The notes under the pieces: generated by a model
The model's database searches: none
What the model saw: only the letters and a program-made list of their open reading frames with translations
What the model was told of the DNA's origin: nothing
Sequence record: MN850601.1
Length of the DNA: 64,000 nucleotides
DNA from: Escherichia phage inny
Direction: 5' to 3' (one strand)
Made by a program: the position numbers and the translations under genes
In this document: piece after piece, positions 34,236 through 43,994 of the stretch
Position numbering within the stretch: the stretch's first letter is position 1
Layout of the letters: every line of letters starts with the position of its first letter

Positions 34236-34508
34236 TTACATAGGTACAACAGAGTCTGTTTTGAAGTCGTACATATGATTTACACCTGTGATTTTTGACA
34301 TAGAGATTGCACGTTTAGCACCTGCAATTACCTGGTCTGTCTTCTTAATCTCTTCACGGAACTTACGTACAGTTAAAGAGAAGAAACGATGATCCATCCA
34401 TTGACGATTCACACGATCACGCTTGAAGTGACGGAAATCTTCAATCTGTTTATTGCGCAATCGGCGCAGTACATGCAATAGTTTATAGTAAGGGTGTTTA
34501 TTTTTCAT
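34236..34508 (-). CDS. hypothetical basic protein
   Basis: 90 aa, Arg/Lys-rich. Confidence 0.5.
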   Translation of the reverse strand: MKNKHPYYKLLHVLRRLRNKQIEDFRHFKRDRVNRQWMDHRFFSLTVRKFREEIKKTDQVIAGAKRAISMSKITGVNHMYDFKTDSVVPM

Positions 34509-34511
34509 AAT

Positions 34512-34940
34512 TTATTCTCCAAATCGAAAATCGTCAATATCATCAAACCATACACAATGGCGAGTCCTTTCTTTTTCTGTTGCAGACATTGTTTCAACAG
34601 CTTTAGGACTAAGCACAACAGGAATGTAACGAACAGGTCGTTCATAATAGTAGCCATACTTTTCTGTATTAGCTGCCTCAAAGACTTTACGGCGTTCTTC
34701 AAGATCTTCTATGGTGAATCCTACCATATAACCATCATGTTTGCTACCCCATCCTTCCTCACTTTCAACAATCGGGATATAAAAGCCGTTACGCGTCCCT
34801 GACGCTGGTTCTTCTTGAGCCTGAAGGCAAGCCTCCCATCCTGCTTTAAAGACGTTATAGAGCGATTTACGCACGTTATGAGTGCCGCTTTCGCTTGCTG
34901 GATAGAGTTCATTAAATTTGTCTTGGATTTGTTGTGTCAT
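34512..34940 (-). CDS. hypothetical protein
   Basis: 142 aa ORF. Confidence 0.55.
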   Translation of the reverse strand: MTQQIQDKFNELYPASESGTHNVRKSLYNVFKAGWEACLQAQEEPASGTRNGFYIPIVESEEGWGSKHDGYMVGFTIEDLEERRKVFEAANTEKYGYYYERPVRYIPVVLSPKAVETMSATEKERTRHCVWFDDIDDFRFGE

Positions 34941-35083
34941 ACTCGCCCCTTAGTGATTATTTGACCAGCTAAACAAATAGCTTGTAGTACAATAAAGAAG
35001 TAGCCTAATTTTACACTACCCAATACCCAGAATGCAATGTTTGCAAACAAACAAAAAGCAATATTAAGTCTAAAGAATAACAT

Positions 35084-35284
35084 TTAATCCCCTTCATATT
35101 TAGGTAAAGGCATATATGCCACAATAGGAGGGTAATCAAAGTGAAAATGATGGTTCACCACAATAATCTTACCAGACATACTTTTATGCACTTCACAATA
35201 CCCTTTTCCACCATCTTCCATTACCACCACATACTCACCTAGTGGGATATCGTATGGGTCTTCTACTTTTACCCATTCTGTCAT
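35084..35284 (-). CDS. hypothetical protein
   Basis: 66 aa ORF. Confidence 0.45.
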   Translation of the reverse strand: MTEWVKVEDPYDIPLGEYVVVMEDGGKGYCEVHKSMSGKIIVVNHHFHFDYPPIVAYMPLPKYEGD

Positions 35285-35550
35285 TTTGGAAACACCTCTT
35301 GTCCATCTTCATGCATTTGTAGTAAAGTTTCACAGATTTCATACACATCTTGATATGTTACAACTGAGAGATCAGATTCTTGATCTTCGACAAGCATAGC
35401 ACAAAGAGCTTTAATGTCAATACCTTTACAATGTTCCGTAGCTATACGGTACATTTCACCATCCTCCCAAACAATTGGTTGCGGAAGCAAAACGTCTGTA
35501 CCATCTTCACAAGTTACAATGTAGTCTGCAATATTATCACGAATTTTCAT
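35281..35550 (-). CDS. hypothetical protein
   Basis: 89 aa ORF. Confidence 0.5.
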   Translation of the reverse strand: MKIRDNIADYIVTCEDGTDVLLPQPIVWEDGEMYRIATEHCKGIDIKALCAMLVEDQESDLSVVTYQDVYEICETLLQMHEDGQEVFPK

Positions 35551-35804
35551 TGTACTACCCCCTTAAATCCAGATGTGCTGCCAGTTTTAACTTTTGCTTT
35601 AAGATGTTCCAACTCTACCATAGGTGTTGCTACTTGTATAGGATTTTCCTCAACCTCATGGATATAATATTCATAATAAGCATACTTACCAATAGAGTGC
35701 AGATACTTAATTGCATGTTCAGGCGAATCTGCTTCGACATACCCTAAATCTTTTGTGGTACGACCTTCGCAATCACCTTCGGTAGTTACATGATAAAGTG
35801 TCAT
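35547..35804 (-). CDS. hypothetical protein
   Basis: 85 aa ORF. Confidence 0.5.
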   Translation of the reverse strand: MTLYHVTTEGDCEGRTTKDLGYVEADSPEHAIKYLHSIGKYAYYEYYIHEVEENPIQVATPMVELEHLKAKVKTGSTSGFKGVVQ

Positions 35805-35953
35805 AAAACCTCCTCATAGTAAGGTAAAGCCTTGATCAGTTGTTCTGAAGTGCCATTTTGTACCCACGTAACACCATTGTCAACAGAAACATACCCTTTT
35901 TTGTCAATAAATTTACGCAGACAGCCAGTGAACTTATTTTTGTAGATAACCAT
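35801..35953 (-). CDS. small hypothetical protein (about 50 aa)
   Basis: Below track cut-off; GGAG upstream of ATG; stop overlaps next start (ATGA); coordinates approximate. Confidence 0.35.
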   Translation of the reverse strand: MVIYKNKFTGCLRKFIDKKGYVSVDNGVTWVQNGTSEQLIKALPYYEEVL

Positions 35954-35962
35954 GTTTACTCC

Positions 35963-37066
35963 TTAATCAATTTTTTCACTAACAAAATTTTTTATATTTT
36001 CATAATCTTCTAGATTATATGTTTCTGTATATCCATCCGGTAGCCACTCTTTTAAGCATAAAGAGCGGTTAAAACATTTTTTAACTTCTTTCTCCAAAGC
36101 GAAAATAGTAGCATAATCTCCACTGAAACTGTCAAGTAGATAATGCTTAAACATGCTGTTTTTACTTTGCTCTTTGATTCTACGATCAATATCTACCGTA
36201 ATCCCTGCTTTCAAGCAGGTATAAAACGGAGAAACCAATTTTTGTATATAAAAACACCAATTTGATTGTTGGTTTTCGGTGTACGGAATTTCTTTTACTC
36301 TTTTTTGCTTTTTAACATTCATCTCTGTAAAGGGTAATGCTTTATAGAGTGATGTTTGACCGTGGCGTGTCTCTACAGAAAGAACTCCCATATCAACAAA
36401 CATATTTATAATATTGCGTACCTGACGATCACTAACCATTCCAATATTAGCTAATGTTTTTTGAGTAGCGTAACATTCTTGCCCTTGTTCATTGAATCCA
36501 GCTATATAGCTATAGATTTCAACGGCTGGCAGTGTAGCGGTGTATTCATTACCAGATGGTGAATACCATTTTTTAAACATTTTCCATTCTGTAGGGGGAA
36601 GCTGTTCAGGAACAGCTTTAACAGTAGATACTTGCTCTGTCTGTGGCTTTTCTGCATTTACAGAGGCTTTCGCTTCTCTTGGGGGAGTAATATGTGCATC
36701 TGTGAGAGGTAGCGCACGTAATTTTAAAGGACGTTTTGGAATTCGTTCTCCGACCTCTTCTAAAAGACCGATTTTAATCATAATACCAATCAATTCATTA
36801 ACTGTCTTACGGCTACAGCTACAAACTTTACTTAACTTCGTTTGTGTTTCAAAACATATTCCCCCTGATTTATCCCAATCTGAAACATAGCAATATAATT
36901 TTTGCATTTCTACACTAAACTTAACTTTTCCACCACCAACACTTGAGGAGTAGATAAACTCAATCTCACAAAAGTAATGAGGTATATTCAAAGTTCGGTC
37001 TTTAATTTCTCCTGTTTGTTTATCAACATACTGGTATTTTTCACGAATCAATTTAATTTTAGACAT
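35963..37066 (-). CDS. putative DNA-binding protein with two helix-turn-helix-like segments
   Basis: Track ORF trimmed to ATG (MSKIKLIREK...) with AGGAG SD; HTH-like SRKTVNELIGIMIKIGLL and SDRQVRNIINMFVDMGVL. Confidence 0.5.
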   Translation of the reverse strand: MSKIKLIREKYQYVDKQTGEIKDRTLNIPHYFCEIEFIYSSSVGGGKVKFSVEMQKLYCYVSDWDKSGGICFETQTKLSKVCSCSRKTVNELIGIMIKIGLLEEVGERIPKRPLKLRALPLTDAHITPPREAKASVNAEKPQTEQVSTVKAVPEQLPPTEWKMFKKWYSPSGNEYTATLPAVEIYSYIAGFNEQGQECYATQKTLANIGMVSDRQVRNIINMFVDMGVLSVETRHGQTSLYKALPFTEMNVKKQKRVKEIPYTENQQSNWCFYIQKLVSPFYTCLKAGITVDIDRRIKEQSKNSMFKHYLLDSFSGDYATIFALEKEVKKCFNRSLCLKEWLPDGYTETYNLEDYENIKNFVSEKID

Positions 37067-37103
37067 TAGAATAATCTCCTTATAAATCACGCTTAATGCG
37101 CTA

Positions 37104-37286
37104 CTAAAGTGAATGAGGATCATTTACCTTTTTTTGTTTGATATTCTCTGCTGCTTCAGTAATGATTTCTAACATCAAATCACTGACCATAATTTGCCTT
37201 TTCTTGGCTTCAGCAAATAAAACCTTGAAGATTTCAGGGTCAACGTGTAGGTAAGTGCGCGGAATTGGTTTCTTAGTTTCGCTCAT
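37104..37286 (-). CDS. ribbon-helix-helix (CopG/Arc-like) small DNA-binding protein
   Basis: Track ORF trimmed to ATG (MSETKKPIPRTYLHVDPEIFKVL...) with AAGGAG SD; beta-strand + two helices pattern. Confidence 0.45.
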   Translation of the reverse strand: MSETKKPIPRTYLHVDPEIFKVLFAEAKKRQIMVSDLMLEIITEAAENIKQKKVNDPHSL

Positions 37287-37299
37287 AGTTTTCTCCTTA

Positions 37300-37653
37300 T
37301 TACATCCACAGATTATGGAAATACTTAGCAAACAAAATACGACCTTCTAAACGATCTTGCCGCTGTTTTTCATTAACTTCTTCTGGTGGAGTTGAGTCCT
37401 TAAAAGAAGACTCCATTTTTTCAAGAATTTCTAACCAGTGTTCTGCTGCTCGTTCTTCCATATAAGGTAGATAGTCACCTTTAGCGTGTGGGTACATCCG
37501 ACGAAGTAACCCACTAGGAATTTTAACATTGTTTGTGGCTATCACTTTTGCACGATATGCAGAAAGTGCATTGTAGATCAGTTTACTTAGTGTCACATCT
37601 AGATCAAGAAGATCACTCTCTTCAAATTGAATTTCATCGTGTACAATTTTCAT
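37300..37653 (-). CDS. hypothetical protein
   Basis: 117 aa ORF. Confidence 0.5.
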   Translation of the reverse strand: MKIVHDEIQFEESDLLDLDVTLSKLIYNALSAYRAKVIATNNVKIPSGLLRRMYPHAKGDYLPYMEERAAEHWLEILEKMESSFKDSTPPEEVNEKQRQDRLEGRILFAKYFHNLWM

Positions 37654-37664
37654 ATCACTCTCCT

Positions 37665-37955
37665 TTATAGTAAAACACGTTTTGCACTGCTTGGTGCATT
37701 GTCGAACATGTTTATCACTTTGTCAAGTTTGTGTATTAACTCGTTCGTAATGTTCCACTCTTTGTATGATCTCCATTGTTTCTTATTCTCACCTACCTGG
37801 TGTAAAACTTTGATTGGTGCATTCAAACGTACATTGCGTTCTTTGTCCTCTTCAAAAGAGGCTAACCATTTTTCGTTATGCCCATGAACAGCAATAATAA
37901 TGCCAAAACCATCAAAAGTTTCTGTAATATTCTTAGTTGCTAGTGTGATGTTCAT
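37665..37955 (-). CDS. hypothetical protein
   Basis: 96 aa; first gene of leftward block. Confidence 0.5.
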   Translation of the reverse strand: MNITLATKNITETFDGFGIIIAVHGHNEKWLASFEEDKERNVRLNAPIKVLHQVGENKKQWRSYKEWNITNELIHKLDKVINMFDNAPSSAKRVLL

Positions 37956-38014
37956 ATCTAACCTCTTTTGTTACGATGCACACAGAGTACCAGAAATTAA
38001 TTTCAGATCAAGTA

Positions 38015-38042
38015 TTGACATACTGTTTTATTGTGCTAATCT
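38015..38042 (+). promoter_or_regulatory. sigma70-like promoter (TTGACA-N16-TAATCT) at strand-switch region
   Basis: Consensus -35 with spaced -10-like hexamer about 35 nt upstream of first rightward gene. Confidence 0.4.
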
Positions 38043-38074
38043 TAATGCATACACAAATGAGAGGAGATAAACGA

Positions 38075-38626
38075 ATGCAAAACATCGATCTGACTTGGAT
38101 AGAAGCCAAAGAAGCAATGTTAAAAGGCAAACGCGTTAAACATAAATACTTCTGCGAAGGAGAATGGTTTGAAATGTGTAACCGATCCATTGTAGATGAA
38201 AAAGGGAATGACATGCAACAATGGTTCAAAAATGAAATTTGGCAGGGAACAGGTTGGTCTATAGTTGAAGAGCAGCCTAGCTCAAGCGCACTGTTTAGCC
38301 CTATTATGTATCGCGTTATCGGTGCTTTAGTTGTTGATCACGGGATTGCAGTGGAAAAAGAATGCTGGGAAGAGGTATCTTTTTTCAACCTGGCTTCTTA
38401 TGCAAAAAGCCATATGCACTTGTTTGAAGAAGGGGATGAATTTGTTCTTCGTATGCGATATGGCAAAGAATTCAGATTACCACTTGATAACGATGTAGAC
38501 ACTGTTGTAAAATGGTTAGCAGAGCATTACGCTTACGATGCAATTTGTGGTCGCAGCTTCGGCAACGAACGCTGGGACATGATTTGTGAAAAATATGATT
38601 TTGAGCCGGAGTACGGAGTTTTATAA
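38075..38626 (+). CDS. hypothetical protein
   Basis: Track ORF 37976..38626 trimmed to ATG (MQNIDLTW...) with GAGGAG SD. Confidence 0.55.
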   Translation: MQNIDLTWIEAKEAMLKGKRVKHKYFCEGEWFEMCNRSIVDEKGNDMQQWFKNEIWQGTGWSIVEEQPSSSALFSPIMYRVIGALVVDHGIAVEKECWEEVSFFNLASYAKSHMHLFEEGDEFVLRMRYGKEFRLPLDNDVDTVVKWLAEHYAYDAICGRSFGNERWDMICEKYDFEPEYGVL

Positions 38627-38877
38627 TGTTAAGTATCAAACCTAAAATGATAACAGAAGACGAAGCAGACTTTATTTTCAAATGTGGACGTGTATGGAGA
38701 GAATTCACAAAAGGGAATGAAGTGGTGGTTGTTGTCGAACACAAGATATCTATCCAGGATCTGTTTGGACAATATGTTGATGTTATTAAATTAGGTATTG
38801 ACAAGGGTTTAGTTGAGGTGTTAACATTAGATCAAGTTGAAGCAGAGCACCTCGACAAAGTAGTGGTTGAATTTTAA
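38626..38877 (+). CDS. hypothetical protein
   Basis: 83 aa ORF. Confidence 0.5.
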   Translation: MLSIKPKMITEDEADFIFKCGRVWREFTKGNEVVVVVEHKISIQDLFGQYVDVIKLGIDKGLVEVLTLDQVEAEHLDKVVVEF

Positions 38878-39535: not shown

Positions 39536-40663
39536 ATGAAATACACGATTTATGGTGATATTGTAAGTGTAAATAAAGATATGGGCGTGGAATCTAACTA
39601 TCTTCCACCTGGATTCTATACTGTTAGTCGTGATCCCCTTGGCAATTACTTTTTAAGCCGTGGTAATCTAACAGGTGTACCGGATGTTCTGTATGGTGAA
39701 ACAGAAAAACGAGCAAATCACGTTATTCGTACATTCCATCGCCGGAGTGCACAAGGTAAAAACACAGGTTTGCTCCTGACAGGCACTAAGGGCAGTGGTA
39801 AAACTATGTTAGCCAAACTCATTAGTCGTGACCTTGTAGAAGAAGGTATTCCAACTATTATGGTTACTCAAGCCTACAGCGATGCTAATTTCATTGAACT
39901 TATTAGCAAGATCACCGACAAAGCAGTGATTATTTTTGACGAGTTTGATAAAGTATATGAGAAGAAACAAGATCAAGAAGCACTTCTCACTTTGTTAGAT
40001 GGTACTGGCAGTGGTAATAAACTGTTTATTCTAACTAAAAACAGTGGCTTTATCTCTGAATTCTTTCTAAATCGTCCTAGTCGTGTGTTTTATAATTTTA
40101 ATTATGATAAAATCTCACTAGAAACTATGATTGACTATTTAGATAAAAACCTGGATAACAAAGCACACTTTGATAATTTCCAAAGGCTTTGGGATGTAAG
40201 TTTAGAGTTGTCCTTTGATGTGATCCAAGGTATAGTAGAAGAACTTAATTTCTACCCTGATTTATCCTTTAAAGAATGCATCTCTATGATGGGCGTTTCT
40301 TTGGGTGGTGGTAATAAGTGGGATATCAGCAGCGTTGTTATTAATGGGAAACTTCAGAAAGTTAGCTGGGTATCTAGTTGGCATAACTTCACACCTGCAA
40401 TCTTTTTAGGTGGCTCGTGCACACTAGACGTGTACTTGTCATCTCCAAGTGATGCAGACTCTAAAGAAGCCCTTGCTAATAGCTCTTACGTGGTTTTTGA
40501 TGATGAAGGAGATGCTCGAATTCCATTGAATGCGACAAAAATGAAAGCAGATCTTATTACAGGCGGTAAAATCGTTGTGTTTAGTGATGATCCAGAAGAT
40601 TCTTTCCGTATTGTTCTGGAACCAACTATCACCAATGGTGCAACTTTGGCAAGCGTGTTTTAA
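39536..40663 (+). CDS. AAA+ ATPase (classic AAA clade), paralog of 22830..23990
   Basis: 375 aa; Walker A GTKGSGKT, Walker B IIFDEFDK, LLTLLDG, FLNRPSRVFYNF. Confidence 0.75.
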   Translation: MKYTIYGDIVSVNKDMGVESNYLPPGFYTVSRDPLGNYFLSRGNLTGVPDVLYGETEKRANHVIRTFHRRSAQGKNTGLLLTGTKGSGKTMLAKLISRDLVEEGIPTIMVTQAYSDANFIELISKITDKAVIIFDEFDKVYEKKQDQEALLTLLDGTGSGNKLFILTKNSGFISEFFLNRPSRVFYNFNYDKISLETMIDYLDKNLDNKAHFDNFQRLWDVSLELSFDVIQGIVEELNFYPDLSFKECISMMGVSLGGGNKWDISSVVINGKLQKVSWVSSWHNFTPAIFLGGSCTLDVYLSSPSDADSKEALANSSYVVFDDEGDARIPLNATKMKADLITGGKIVVFSDDPEDSFRIVLEPTITNGATLASVF

Positions 40664-40679
40664 GTAAGCCAGCAAATAA

Positions 40680-40702
40680 AAACCCGCTCCGGCGGGTTTT
40701 CT
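40680..40702 (+). terminator. rho-independent terminator
   Basis: AAACCCGC-TCCG-GCGGGTTT followed by TCTTG, 17 nt after ATPase stop. Confidence 0.6.
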
Positions 40703-40737
40703 TGTATTGATGCCAGATTTAATAAGAGGAGTAATAG

Positions 40738-41910
40738 ATGACAGCACCAAAATCATGGGAACAATATAAAGAAGAATTAACACCCCTTGCTAAAAATCGC
40801 AATATTCAAATCCGGGGTTATGTTGGTGAATGGAAAGGGAACAAGACTAAACTTAAGCTATCTTGCCCTAAACATGGAGAGTGGAACACCACGAACATTA
40901 ATGATTTTAAGAAGGGACGTGGTTGTCCTATCTGTTCTGGTAAGAAGCCGTTAACATGGGAAACAGAATTGCCGATCTTGGAAGAGATAGCACAGAAGAG
41001 GGGGTATCAGGTGTTAGGGTACGTGGGAGAATGGAAAGGGAATAAAACAAAACTTGATTTGTTGTGTCATTGTGGTAATAAATGGGATACTACAAGTATT
41101 AACAATTTTAAACGTGGTAGCGGTTGTCCACAATGTAAGAGGGAGAGACAAACAATGTCCGACGATCAACATATTGCAGATTTCTTTTCTACAGGGGAAT
41201 TTAAGGAAGGCACTATCTTCACCAATACAGGGAAACGTAACAAGCGTGATGCAGTATGGATGGTTGAGTGTCCTGTTTGCTCCCATGATGAATATGTTCA
41301 AGCAGGTGTTTGTGATGGTAAATTTTACTCTGCAGGACATAACCTTAAACAAGGGTATATTCCGTGTCGTTGTGGGAACTATCAGTATACAGAAGACCAG
41401 ATCACCTATAGGGTAAAAAAGGAAGTAGAAGGGAAAGGGTATGTCTGGGTAGATTGGATTACCAAACCCTCTTCTATAGGTAAGTTTAAATATCTTTGTC
41501 TTGTGCATGGTGAGCAGATAGGGAGTGCTCGTAATTTATTAAGCCTCGGTCAAGGTTGTCCACAGTGTGCTGGTCATAATCAACAGCAATTATATATTAA
41601 TATTGTTAAAGATAATGATATTATAGTTGCTCTTAAGTTTGGTATATCTAAAGATAGCGATAGACGATTAAACGGTCAAAATAGCCGTAATCTGTTTTTT
41701 ATGGAGCGTATTTGTTTATATGATTTTAGCACAGTGAAACAATGTAGGGCTGCTGAAAGAGCTATAAAGAAAAAATTAAAAACTGGTATTTTAACGGCAA
41801 GAGAGTTGAAAGATGGTTATACAGAAACAGTAAGTGTTTCTGATTTGGAAAATCTTCAAAAAATTATTACACAATATGGTGGCAAATTAGTATACAGTAA
41901 GGAGATGTAA
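40738..41910 (+). CDS. multi-zinc-ribbon repeat protein (possible nucleic-acid-binding/nuclease)
   Basis: 390 aa; four repeats of GYVGEWKGNKTKL...W.TT.IN.FK.G.GCP.C type; CxxC pairs. Confidence 0.55.
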   Translation: MTAPKSWEQYKEELTPLAKNRNIQIRGYVGEWKGNKTKLKLSCPKHGEWNTTNINDFKKGRGCPICSGKKPLTWETELPILEEIAQKRGYQVLGYVGEWKGNKTKLDLLCHCGNKWDTTSINNFKRGSGCPQCKRERQTMSDDQHIADFFSTGEFKEGTIFTNTGKRNKRDAVWMVECPVCSHDEYVQAGVCDGKFYSAGHNLKQGYIPCRCGNYQYTEDQITYRVKKEVEGKGYVWVDWITKPSSIGKFKYLCLVHGEQIGSARNLLSLGQGCPQCAGHNQQQLYINIVKDNDIIVALKFGISKDSDRRLNGQNSRNLFFMERICLYDFSTVKQCRAAERAIKKKLKTGILTARELKDGYTETVSVSDLENLQKIITQYGGKLVYSKEM

Positions 41911-42462
41911 ATGCGGATTACTGATAAGTATGTGTTCTTCTTCTCGGCAAAAGATGAATTTAGCAACTGGTATCTATCATCTTTTATTGAACCTTTAGCT
42001 CCCAAGTATAATAATTCTATTACAAGTTCTGTTGAATTTACTTGTGTGGAACAATATATGATGTGGAGAAAAGCATGTTTGTTTTATGATTACAACATTG
42101 CATCTTCTATTTTAACCGGAGATCTAAGATATACAGGAGAAAAAGAACAGGCATATTATAAGCGACTAGGTAGATTAGTTAAAGATTACGATGAAGCTAC
42201 TTGGACTTCTTTACGGGAGAAGATTGTCAAGCGTGGTTTGTATCTTAAATACACACAAAATGAAGATCTCAAAAATAAACTTATCGCTTACGCAGATAAG
42301 GAGTTCGTAGAGGCAAGCCCTTATGATTCTATTTATGGTATCAAAATGGGAATGTGGGATCGTGATGTGGAAAATAAGGACTGTTGGAAAGGACAAAATC
42401 TTTTAGGAAAATGGCATACAGACCTTGCTGTTTATCTAAAAGCACAATCTGATATTTCCTGA
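41911..42462 (+). CDS. NADAR (YbiA-like, DUF1768) domain protein
   Basis: 183 aa; FFFSAKDEFSNWY, FTCVEQYMMWRKA, EASPYDSIYGIKMG, WKGQNLLGKW align with YbiA as recalled. Confidence 0.7.
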   Translation: MRITDKYVFFFSAKDEFSNWYLSSFIEPLAPKYNNSITSSVEFTCVEQYMMWRKACLFYDYNIASSILTGDLRYTGEKEQAYYKRLGRLVKDYDEATWTSLREKIVKRGLYLKYTQNEDLKNKLIAYADKEFVEASPYDSIYGIKMGMWDRDVENKDCWKGQNLLGKWHTDLAVYLKAQSDIS

Positions 42463-42678
42463 TATTTTGAAAATTTTTATTTTTATAAAAAGGGGTGTGG
42501 GTTTCATGTACGGAAATCCACCCTCTGAATAATATATCCAGAGTAAATATTATTCTGTACTCTGTTAATAAAGTATTTAATTTGTTTGTTTGACTATGGT
42601 ATCTGATCTTTAAAAGACATACTATCTCTTAACTACTACTTATAACAGAACAGTAAAATCATTTTTATAAAAAGTACA

Positions 42679-42885
42679 AAATTATTTAAAGTTTTTACAG
42701 ATTTTTGGGTACAAATTTTGAAAATGAAAAGTTCAAGTTTGGTCAAAATTATTTAAAGTTTTTGTACGTATTTCTGTCCAGATTTTGAAAATGAAAACTT
42801 CAATTTTTTAAAAATTCCCCAGTTTATTTAAAGTTTTTTTGCCTTTTTCCGTAGAAAAATCAAAAATGAAAAGTTCAATTTCGTG
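42679..42885. repeat. three tandem copies of a ~66-bp unit (ATTTAAAGTTTTT ... TTTGAAAATGAAAAGTTCAA)
   Basis: Direct repeats seen at about 42679, 42746, 42811. Confidence 0.7.
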
Positions 42886-42899
42886 TTTTTATAGGTGTG

Positions 42900-43015
42900 T
42901 TAATGAGAATCATTTTCGTTTGTAAATGAGAATCATTATCATTTAACTATGTAAGTGATAATCATTCTCAGTAAGAGAATGAGAATCATTAGCAAATGAG
43001 AATTTTCTCATTTAG
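42900..43015. promoter_or_regulatory. cluster of five ATGAGAATCATT-type palindromic boxes (Fur-box-like)
   Basis: atgagaatcatt x2, gtgataatcattctca, aatgagaatcatt, aatgagaattttctcatt; ATGAGAATCATTATC matches 14/15 of the Fur consensus core. Confidence 0.45.
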
Positions 43016-43244
43016 AGAATAACGCGCAGGGGCGGTGTTTGTCTCGCGCTCCCGTGTCCCCTCGCCATACAATAAGAATAGCATAACCAACAACAAAAGC
43101 AAGCGATTATTTTTATCTTTACATTTCTTTACAAATTTATTTTAGACGAGCTACCGGCGATCAACCTTCCAACCAGTGCCCCCTGGTATGTTAGCCCCGC
43201 CTTTACGCCGTGGGGGTGGCGTTTCCTCTTCTGTATGTAAAACA

Positions 43245-43272
43245 GTATAAGCCCGATCCCTGGGCTTGTCAA
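43245..43272 (-). promoter_or_regulatory. orphan sigma70-like promoter (TTGACA-N17-TATACT) reading leftward into GC-rich non-coding DNA
   Basis: Reverse complement of tgtcaa...agtata; no ORF with plausible start downstream. Confidence 0.35.
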
Positions 43273-43274
43273 GA

Positions 43275-43541
43275 TTATTTTTTGTTTTCTTGCCAGGATA
43301 GGACACCTAACCAAAAATACATGTCGCCCCGCGCCCCTGGCGGGATCTTGCTTTCCCCGCCGCCACTACAAGCCCATAGATAACCATTAGCGAACGGATC
43401 AAAATGATCTATTTCTTCCACCTTATGATCGCCCAGGTTGAGAACGGTTTCAACCTTTAAGCCCGTTGCGCTTGCTACCTGGTGCACCGTGCCGCCTTGC
43501 CAGCCTAATGAGTGCATGAGGTGTAGAGTAGTATTTGTCAT
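43275..43541 (-). CDS. hypothetical protein
   Basis: 88 aa; led on minus strand by hairpin + CATCAAAGAAAGGG RBS like the rightward cassettes. Confidence 0.5.
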   Translation of the reverse strand: MTNTTLHLMHSLGWQGGTVHQVASATGLKVETVLNLGDHKVEEIDHFDPFANGYLWACSGGGESKIPPGARGDMYFWLGVLSWQENKK

Positions 43542-43544
43542 GGT

Positions 43545-43640
43545 ATCGCCCTTTCTTTGATGTGCGCCCTGGTTGGCGCGGTAGAAAGATAATAGCCCTT
43601 TCCTTTATAGATAGCAAGCAAAAAAAAGAAATGAAAAAAA
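43545..43640 (-). promoter_or_regulatory. promoter + stem-loop cassette (minus-strand copy)
   Basis: On minus strand: TTGCTT-N17-TATTAT, then hairpin GCGCC-N6-GGCGC, then ACATCAAAGAAAGGG. Confidence 0.4.
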
Positions 43641-43664
43641 GATTAAAAAAGGGGTTGACGTTCC

Positions 43665-43693
43665 TCACCTGGTAGCGTATTATTCATCTTGTC
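43665..43693 (+). promoter_or_regulatory. sigma70-like promoter (TTGACG-N17-TATTAT)
   Basis: Divergent from minus-strand cassette. Confidence 0.4.
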
Positions 43694-43810
43694 GAGGGGG
43701 GCGAGGCACAACGACAATAAACAAAAGGAGGGCGCAATGTAGGACGGGCAAAGGTGAGGATCTCCATAATCCACCGTCACAATAACATTACTTATAAAAG
43801 GTTGATAACG

Positions 43811-43906
43811 ATGATCAAGAAAGAAAACAGCTTGACGGTTGGAACGATTAACGCTATCATTCTTGCCGTTCCATTTTGGATTGTAGTTGCGGTTATTATT
43901 TTTTAA
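43811..43906 (+). CDS. tiny hydrophobic peptide (31 aa), speculative
   Basis: MIKKENSLTVGTINAIILAVPFWIVVAVIIF; weak SD. Confidence 0.25.
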   Translation: MIKKENSLTVGTINAIILAVPFWIVVAVIIF

Positions 43907-43914
43907 AAATATTC

Positions 43915-43970
43915 TTGACAACGTTTTTTAATCTGATAAGATGTATCACATAGGGCGGCAATAGTGCCGC
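43915..43970 (+). promoter_or_regulatory. early promoter + 5' stem-loop cassette
   Basis: TTGACA-N16-TAAGAT, then CATAGG + hairpin GCGGCA-ATAG-TGCCGC. Confidence 0.55.
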
Positions 43971-43994
43971 TCATAACAGAAGAGAGAAATAATC

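Follow-up and report, generated by a model that had tools for sequence, protein, structure and literature searches.

A putative homing endonuclease of Escherichia phage inny with four tandem CapR zinc-finger modules and a T5orf172-type C-terminal domain

Organization of the locus

The window analyzed in this study is a stretch of 64,000 nucleotides from Escherichia phage inny (sequence record MN850601.1), a phage of the genus Justusliebigvirus (phi92-like) within the subfamily Stephanstirmvirinae. The locus of interest lies between the genes for an AAA ATPase (39536-40663) and a NADAR protein (41911-42462). Its reading frame is complete, encodes a protein of 390 amino acids and has the coordinates given in a preliminary description made from the sequence alone (Table 1). 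The frame ends with a TAA codon at 41908-41910, and the start codon of the NADAR gene follows immediately.

A G+C hairpin with a run of Ts, putatively a terminator judging from its sequence, lies upstream of the reading frame and is kept in four related phages. It is followed by a Shine-Dalgarno-like GAGGAG, and the equivalent site in phi92 carries an annotation as ribosome-binding site. The endonuclease gene is a separate reading frame with its own ribosome-binding site. A search for tRNAs in the ORF-poor stretch downstream found none.

When the protein was compared with family collections, PHROG 681 ("endonuclease") matched it with an E-value of 3e-87, and no match was obtained in NCBIfam. 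Searches of the PDB by sequence, performed with the whole protein and with a profile of the C-terminal alignment, returned only antibody chains and NtrC, all with E>0.2.

Table 1. Features of the endonuclease locus in the window
Feature	Position	Strand	Description
Terminator-like G+C hairpin with T-run	40679..40700	+	Pattern scan and sequence; 3' of the ATPase stop codon (40663) and 5' of the endonuclease ATG
Shine-Dalgarno-like GAGGAG	40726..40731	+	Read from the sequence; 6 nt 5' of the ATG
ORF	40738..41910	+	ATG start, 390 aa; four CapR zinc-finger modules and a T5orf172 nuclease domain
CapR module R1	40753..40941	+	aa 6-68; Pfam CapR E 4.7e-12, 46.3 bits alone
39-nt DNA direct repeat	40816..40854 and 41017-41055	+	82% identical, 201 nt apart
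CapR module R2	40954..41142	+	aa 73-135; Pfam CapR E 1.2e-16, 61.0 bits alone
CapR module R3	41152..41379	+	aa ~139-214; Pfam CapR E 5e-14, 52.7 bits alone
CapR module R4	41383..41574	+	aa 216-279; Pfam CapR E 3.6e-4, 21.1 bits alone, below the cut-off of 24.2
T5orf172 / GIY-YIG-like nuclease domain	41575..41907	+	aa 280-390

An array of four CapR modules

The Pfam family CapR (PF21817) matches the protein in four stretches, with 145.4 bits over the whole protein and a gathering cut-off of 24.2, and the four tandem zinc-binding modules of the preliminary description were thereby confirmed. The boundaries of R1 were taken from jackhmmer. Putative zinc ligands could be assigned to each module: C43/H46 and C63/C66 in R1; C110/C112 (or H111) and C130/C133 in R2; C178/C181 and C210/C212 in R3; and C254/H257 and C274/C277 in R4. 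The two pairs of ligands of a module are separated by about 17-28 residues, as the CapR homology domain requires.

By sequence comparison, the similarity between repeats is far above chance: R1 and R2 share 51% identity along 67 amino acids (E 6e-26), and for R1 and R4 the identity is 31% (E 7e-8). R3, the most diverged copy, has a CxxC...CxC set of ligands; it shows no pairwise similarity to R1, R2 or R4 and is recognizable by profile only. For this reason, the consensus initially drawn for the repeats (GYVGEWKGNKTKL...) describes R1 well, and R2 if a shift of one residue is allowed at the first ligand pair, but does not extend to R3 nor to R4, which is a diverged copy as well.

Conservation of the ligands was scored in 53 homologues with identities of 25-91%. 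Most ligands are retained in those homologues that have the module concerned, H46 and C112 being more variable. C130 and C133 are invariant (53/53), and C112 is found in 10 of 34 homologues. In R1, C43 is kept in 48 of the 53 proteins and H46 in 29. The cysteines of R3 are retained in 48-52 homologues out of 53, and the ligands of R4 in 49-52.

The modules had been described as zinc ribbons. That they are zinc-binding repeats agrees with our analysis, but the ribbon label is probably wrong. In the structural model, the second ligand pair leads into a helix in R2 (H131-137) and in R4 (H275-279); moreover, the Pfam families DUF4379, annotated as "probable treble clef zinc finger", and DUF723 match the same modules, albeit more weakly than CapR. 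Because of the predicted helix and the DUF4379 annotation, a treble-clef finger probably fits the modules better than a zinc ribbon. The model of the full-length protein reached a pTM of 0.51, and Foldseek searches with it gave meaningless matches only, a consequence of the domain arrangement being undefined in the model.

The C-terminal domain

As the preliminary description stated, the repeats are followed by a distinct C-terminal domain (aa 280-390). Its match to Pfam T5orf172 (PF10544) is marginal: the score is 20.7 bits when the complete protein is scanned and 22.7 bits when the domain is scanned alone (cut-off, 20). A match to MUG113 was below threshold. When 27 diverse C-terminal domains of the family were searched, 15 matched T5orf172 and 12 matched MUG113 with E<=0.01.

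Ten residues are invariant in the 53 homologues mentioned above: Y286, K300, G302, R310, Q314, E340, D359, G360, E363 and T364. All the invariant residues other than cysteines lie inside the C-terminal domain. An AlphaFold2 model of aa 280-390 has high confidence (pLDDT 95.8, pTM 0.88) and shows a beta-beta-alpha-beta-alpha order, with R310 and E340 placed in two helices (H28-38 and H54-67, respectively). Foldseek E-values were not significant (0.29 and worse). The domain displays what appears to be an altered version of the GIY-YIG motif: "LYI", containing Y286, stands for GIY, and K300-F-G302 for YIG, so that the second tyrosine of the classical motif is replaced; R310 and E340 complete the set. 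An hhalign comparison with the ICP1 nuclease Odn placed K300-x-G302, R310 and E340 opposite K138-x-G140, R148 and E180, with an E-value of 0.0024 and a probability of only 12%. In the same alignment, D359-G-Y-T-E363-T lies opposite D198...E202-T203 of Odn.

On the evidence of sequence and predicted fold, the C-terminal domain is a T5orf172-type member of the GIY-YIG superfamily whose putative active site appears to be intact. No clear catalytic motif had been visible at first sight because the classical GIY-YIG motif is altered. The earlier remark holds for HNH motifs; a GIY-YIG motif is, however, present in modified form.

A different assignment is suggested by a match of the protein to PHROG 559, labelled "HNH endonuclease" (E 2.5e-25), and by matches to "endonuclease" genes of T5-like phages: the protein might be an HNH-type endonuclease, or else a zinc-ribbon protein unrelated to nucleases in which cysteine-rich repeats are incidental. 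We consider either option extremely improbable. The PHROG 559 match covers aa 8-184, and others aa 1-135, which are only CapR modules shared through domain shuffling. No HNH family was detected in a Pfam scan of the protein at E<=1, and the C-terminal domain matches T5orf172 and MUG113 and has a predicted GIY-YIG-like fold. As for incidental repeats, the similarity between modules is statistically robust. Hence, at the level of sequence and predicted fold, both options are refuted.

Another possibility is that the protein is chiefly a regulator that binds specific DNA sequences, in the manner of PLE CapR or I-TevI, with a nuclease domain that is inactive or rarely used. CapR modules alone suffice for promoter binding and repression (PMC8096241), I-TevI is also an autorepressor (PMC10448857), and the inny gene belongs to an early/middle operon and is located directly 3' of the terminator-like hairpin. 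Conservation speaks against this possibility, which we view as improbable: the putative catalytic residues are invariant in homologues with identities down to 25%, and no part of the gene is better conserved than the nuclease domain, unlike what would be seen in a decaying or idle domain.

Relationship to known systems

The inny gene is a typical member of a class that has been described already, that of putative phage homing endonucleases. Homing endonucleases of the T5orf172 type in which CapR zinc fingers are repeated are known from the studies of Netter et al. (2021, PMC8096241) and Barth et al. (2023, PMC10448857). CapR, DUF723 or DUF4379 fingers were reported in 200 of 229 T5orf172 homing endonuclease genes, often repeated as "beads on a string", and their copy number changes through recombination between repeats (PMC10448857). 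The set of phages examined in that study includes the Justusliebigvirus Muut (PMC10448857). The preliminary description was thus right in noting a resemblance to DNA-binding modules of free-standing phage nucleases, as the protein combines CapR fingers with a T5orf172 domain. Comparison with individual systems can be summarized as follows:

(i). The homing endonucleases gp174, gp165, gp121, gp53 and gp130 of Vibrio phage ICP1 and their relatives (PMC10448857) share with the inny protein the N-terminal tandem zinc fingers and the C-terminal T5orf172 domain, as well as changes of repeat number by recombination and the occurrence of multiple paralogues per genome. They differ in that identity to the inny protein is only ~28% and that ICP1 belongs to a phage lineage other than the Stephanstirmvirinae. 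Furthermore, in its lineage the inny gene is fixed at one locus rather than variably present, and its neighbors are the ATPase and NADAR genes, whereas the survey emphasized structural, terminase and RNR genes.

(ii). CapR, which represses the capsid operon and is encoded by the PLE satellite of V. cholerae, and whose origin has been traced to T5orf172 homing endonucleases of ICP1, binds DNA by means of a CxxC...CxC zinc finger in which the four cysteines are needed, as seen by EMSA with Cys-to-Ser mutants (PMC8096241). The inny modules match the CapR profile, and R3 shares the pattern of ligands that is essential for DNA binding by CapR. However, PLE CapR is a satellite-encoded transcriptional repressor without nuclease domain, while in the inny protein four modules are joined to a nuclease domain that appears to be intact. 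Zinc-dependent, sequence-specific DNA binding by modules of this type has been shown only for PLE CapR (PMC8096241).

(iii). Odn (gp88 of ICP1), an origin-directed nuclease (Barth et al. 2021, PMC8263062), possesses a nuclease domain of the same kind: E340 corresponds to E180, R310 corresponds to the conserved arginine, and the DGxxET motif is common to both proteins. Mutation of E180 abolishes cleavage by Odn in vitro and in vivo, and Odn is the only member of the T5orf172 family for which nuclease activity has been shown (PMC8263062).

(iv). In I-TevI of phage T4 the nuclease domain is N-terminal, the reverse of the order found in the inny protein. I-TevI and SegA-G of T4 have the classical GIY and YIG tyrosines, while the inny protein has LYI and KFG. 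The DNA-binding part is different too, as a multi-finger array is found in the inny protein, and a helix-turn-helix with a single structural zinc finger in the classical GIY-YIG homing endonucleases of T4.

(v). The GIY-YIG (URI) nucleases SLX1 and At-HIGLE are eukaryotic repair enzymes with RING/PHD partners; they are 14-16% identical to the inny protein, and the likeness is one of fold only.

Given that the architecture and the evolution by repeat recombination were described between 2021 and 2023, and that near-identical genes have been deposited under the names "endonuclease" or "CapR homology domain-containing protein", the gene itself adds little to current knowledge. Its modest added value lies in a natural series of alleles with three, four and five fingers at one locus, joined to a conserved nuclease domain. 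The alleles belong to well-studied E. coli phages, namely phi92 and the BASEL phages PaulScherrer and EmilieFrey. The series may thus provide a convenient system to relate the finger array to the target specificity of T5orf172 nucleases, and to study marker exclusion in co-infection.

Distribution and synteny

Several Escherichia phages of the genus Justusliebigvirus have genes with 99-99.9% DNA identity to the inny gene, and for ZYD, Nernie, outra and Paula the identity is 99.9%. The near-identical records annotate the product as "endonuclease" or "hypothetical protein", and UniRef names one relative as "CapR homology domain-containing protein". The gene occupies the same position in all of the ~54 Justusliebigvirus records with an ATPase gene of 90% identity or more, and among close relatives it is always located between the AAA ATPase and NADAR genes. 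In the sister genus Phapecoctavirus, where synteny was checked in some genomes only, phAPEC8 and nieznany also have the endonuclease gene after the ATPase gene, and the proteins are 56% and 38.5% identical to that of inny, respectively. Presence/absence polymorphism was not found among these close relatives (the ~54 Justusliebigvirus records and the Phapecoctavirus genomes checked).

A different arrangement is seen in two more distant members of the subfamily, FKP3 of Klebsiella and Tr1 of Citrobacter, with ATPase proteins 74% and 71% identical to that of inny, respectively. Both the endonuclease gene and the NADAR gene are absent after the ATPase gene in these two phages, and a DNA methyltransferase gene is found in their place in FKP3. 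Hence, the gene is fixed among close relatives and varies in presence at the subfamily level.

The preliminary description had indicated that its interpretation would fall if the C-terminal domain belonged to a non-nuclease family and the gene were syntenic and conserved in all relatives. The gene is indeed conserved and syntenic among close relatives, but its C-terminal domain is nuclease-like. As synteny alone holds, the interpretation stands and is supported by our analysis.

Fixation among close relatives has additional implications. The sporadic occurrence expected of a homing endonuclease gene is not observed at this level, and the gene is therefore a poor fit to an actively spreading selfish element. 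On the other hand, the gene is a free-standing intergenic reading frame, and its family is scattered over many loci and lineages, as is typical of homing genes. A tblastn search located the family at 1005 places in 526 phage records, which means several copies per genome, with hosts that include Escherichia, Vibrio, Klebsiella and Aeromonas, among others. The matches comprised "putative homing endonuclease" genes of ICP1 (E 3e-23) and genes of T5-like phages annotated as endonuclease.

Allelic variation in the CapR array

Alleles of the gene differ in the number of modules. Three modules are present in EmilieFrey (325 aa), four in inny (390 aa) and phi92 (396 aa), and five in PaulScherrer (467 aa), and alleles with a different number of modules are found in genomes that are otherwise nearly identical. 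In the family as a whole, 85 of 121 members have a T5orf172-like domain preceded by between two and seven modules, with three or four as the commonest numbers, while the remaining members have similar finger arrays with other C-terminal regions.

A DNA alignment that included the 3' part of the ATPase gene, the endonuclease gene and the NADAR gene permitted comparison of the array with its surroundings. Relative to inny, the DNA that encodes the repeats is 55-88% identical, whereas the T5orf172-coding part and the flanks are 95-99% identical. Divergence is uneven within the array: in phi92, identities are 79% for R1, 87% for R2, 55% for R3 and 57% for R4. On either side of the gene, the flanking DNA has 97-99% identity in each of the four comparisons, and no boundary of exchange could be seen.

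In most comparisons dS is 0.25-1.6 in the array and ~0.1-0.15 in the flanks. Lower values were obtained where a module is still shared, as in R1 of PaulScherrer (0.06) and R4 of EmilieFrey (0). The dN/dS ratio ranges from 0.2 to 0.9 in the array, from 0.14 to 0.24 in the nuclease domain and from 0.00 to 0.05 in the flanks. Since dN/dS is below 1 and not only dN but also dS is raised in the array, these estimates point to exchange of modules with diverged alleles combined with relaxed constraint. For the same reasons, positive selection was discarded as the sole cause of array divergence.

Recombination between repeats could also contribute to variation. The 39-nt direct repeat of Table 1 is a plausible substrate for recombination events that change the number of modules.

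Possible function of the protein

The view that we consider fairly likely, based on sequence comparison and structure prediction, is that the gene encodes an active, free-standing endonuclease of the T5orf172 branch of the GIY-YIG superfamily, specific for a DNA site, in which the fingers provide targeting and the C-terminal domain cuts, with homing or marker exclusion as the outcome. Binding of zinc and of DNA, cleavage, a target site and homing are properties that we infer for the inny protein. In such a scheme, the four CapR modules would fold independently, as beads on a string, and would jointly read an extended DNA site. The array would position the GIY-YIG-like domain, and nearby DNA would be cut; E340 would bind the metal ion used in cleavage, and R310 and Y286 would contribute. 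During mixed infection, cleavage would affect the genome of a related phage that differs in sequence at or near the locus, and repair from the genome that carries the nuclease would copy the gene and its flanks, resulting in homing or marker exclusion. Recombination between repeats and exchange with diverged alleles would alter the array, and the enzyme might be retargeted in this manner.

The main alternative, which we judge rather unlikely, is that the phage maintains the gene as a domesticated nuclease whose array is aimed at a fast-evolving enemy or competitor, be it a satellite, a co-infecting relative or host DNA. Under this view, the array would be hypervariable as a result of an arms race. 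The presence of the gene at one locus in every close relative is in favor of this alternative, and so is the combination of a strongly conserved nuclease domain, with the low dN/dS given above, and an array that varies in sequence and copy number. There is also a precedent in Odn, a T5orf172 nuclease that acts by destroying PLE satellites (PMC8263062), and the window itself contains an Odn-like gene at a distance of 3.6 kb; furthermore, the adjoining NADAR gene could have a conflict function too. Fixation can, however, result as well from an old, completed homing sweep, and the raised dS of the array is a sign of allele exchange rather than of positive selection alone. A PADLOC search gave no match to the protein. 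Likewise, a search for the DNA of the gene in distant mode, directed to copies of the gene and not to target sites, found no match among 5,426 complete E. coli genomes, and therefore gives no evidence for a chromosomal or satellite copy. Altogether, fixation and a hypervariable array fit a weapon and a homing endonuclease equally well.

A bolder version is that the gene encodes a fixed nuclease, beneficial to the phage and retargetable, whose array of 3-5 modules, swapped and reshuffled among genomes with an identity of 95-99% elsewhere, tracks a fast-evolving target such as alleles of rival Justusliebigviruses or satellites of E. coli phages. We regard this proposal as doubtful. If it were true, a readable code relating modules to the DNA that they recognize might exist.

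Additional observations

Besides the gene with the CapR array, the window contains a second T5orf172 gene, a paralogue on the reverse strand (35963-37123), which is the Odn-like gene of inny. It encodes two wHTH/RepA_N-like domains, was found in five phage records only, and corresponds to a nuclease of Inny, Muut and Mt1B1_P17 that Barth et al. (2023, PMC10448857) described as Odn-like and putatively directed against satellites. On a different matter, four records deposited as "Campylobacter phage" correspond, by their sequence, to Justusliebigviruses of E. coli.

Genes flanking the endonuclease

The gene for the CapR-T5orf172 endonuclease, which carries four CapR-type zinc-finger modules ahead of its nuclease domain, lies between an AAA-type ATPase gene and a NADAR-domain gene. 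The ATPase, labelled "FtsH-like protease" or "ATPase or Zn metalloprotease" in other records, is 100% identical over 375 aa (tblastn) in PaulScherrer, EmilieFrey and phi92, related phages whose endonuclease alleles differ in module number. This identity is in sharp contrast with the variability of the adjoining nuclease gene. On the other side, the endonuclease stop codon directly abuts the NADAR gene, whose ribosome binding site is inside the 3' end of the endonuclease gene. Klebsiella phage FKP3 and Citrobacter phage Tr1, the two relatives without the endonuclease at this locus, have no NADAR gene there either. The endonuclease and NADAR genes may travel together; alternatively, the locus could be no more than a site for variable cargo.

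Features of the endonuclease neighborhood
Feature	Coordinates	Strand	Details
Flexible region around strand switch	34500-38700		
Second T5orf172/MUG113-type nuclease gene	35963-37123	-	386 aa
AAA-type ATPase gene	39536-40663	+	
NADAR-domain gene	41911-42462	+	Pfam E 2e-36; PADLOC candidate model PDC-M42C E 2e-34
ORF-poor stretch	42463-43990	both	about 1.5 kb

In the ORF-poor stretch downstream of NADAR, no reading frame on either strand exceeds about 90 aa and ARAGORN detected no tRNA; annotated related genomes have only tiny hypothetical ORFs at the equivalent position.

A second nuclease gene in a flexible region

The C-terminal domain of the second nuclease is similar to that of the endonuclease (phmmer E 3e-9). 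The N-termini differ, however: the second nuclease has two HTH_36/DnaD_N-like winged-helix domains in place of zinc fingers. An odn-like RepA_N+T5orf172 gene (resembling the PLE-destroying nuclease Odn of phage ICP1), encoding a putative anti-satellite nuclease, has been reported in Inny, Muut and Mt1B1_P17 (Barth 2023, PMC10448857), and the second nuclease gene matches this description. Megablast matched it in just 5 phage records; coverage was 64% in muut, while Mt1B1_P17 and BI-EHEC match its 3' half only.

The surrounding region, within which GC skew changes sign near 38 kb, is only 30–68% covered in most Justusliebigvirus genomes, and approximately 1.3 kb containing the odn-like gene is absent from many of them. 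The CapR-T5orf172 gene, 3.6 kb from the odn-like gene, is by contrast fixed.

Additional observations

The metagenomic relative P0025 (669 aa) harbors three fingers and a T5orf172 domain (aa 221–333), with three further finger modules behind them. It may represent two adjacent genes fused, or a nuclease domain embedded within a finger array.

Four GenBank records labelled as Campylobacter jejuni phages ("Campylobacter phage" A145, A110a, A150 and C3; MG065645, MG065689, MG065639 and MG065656, respectively) share 93–98% identity with E. coli Justusliebigviruses at the loci that were compared. All four probably represent mislabelled or contaminant genomes.
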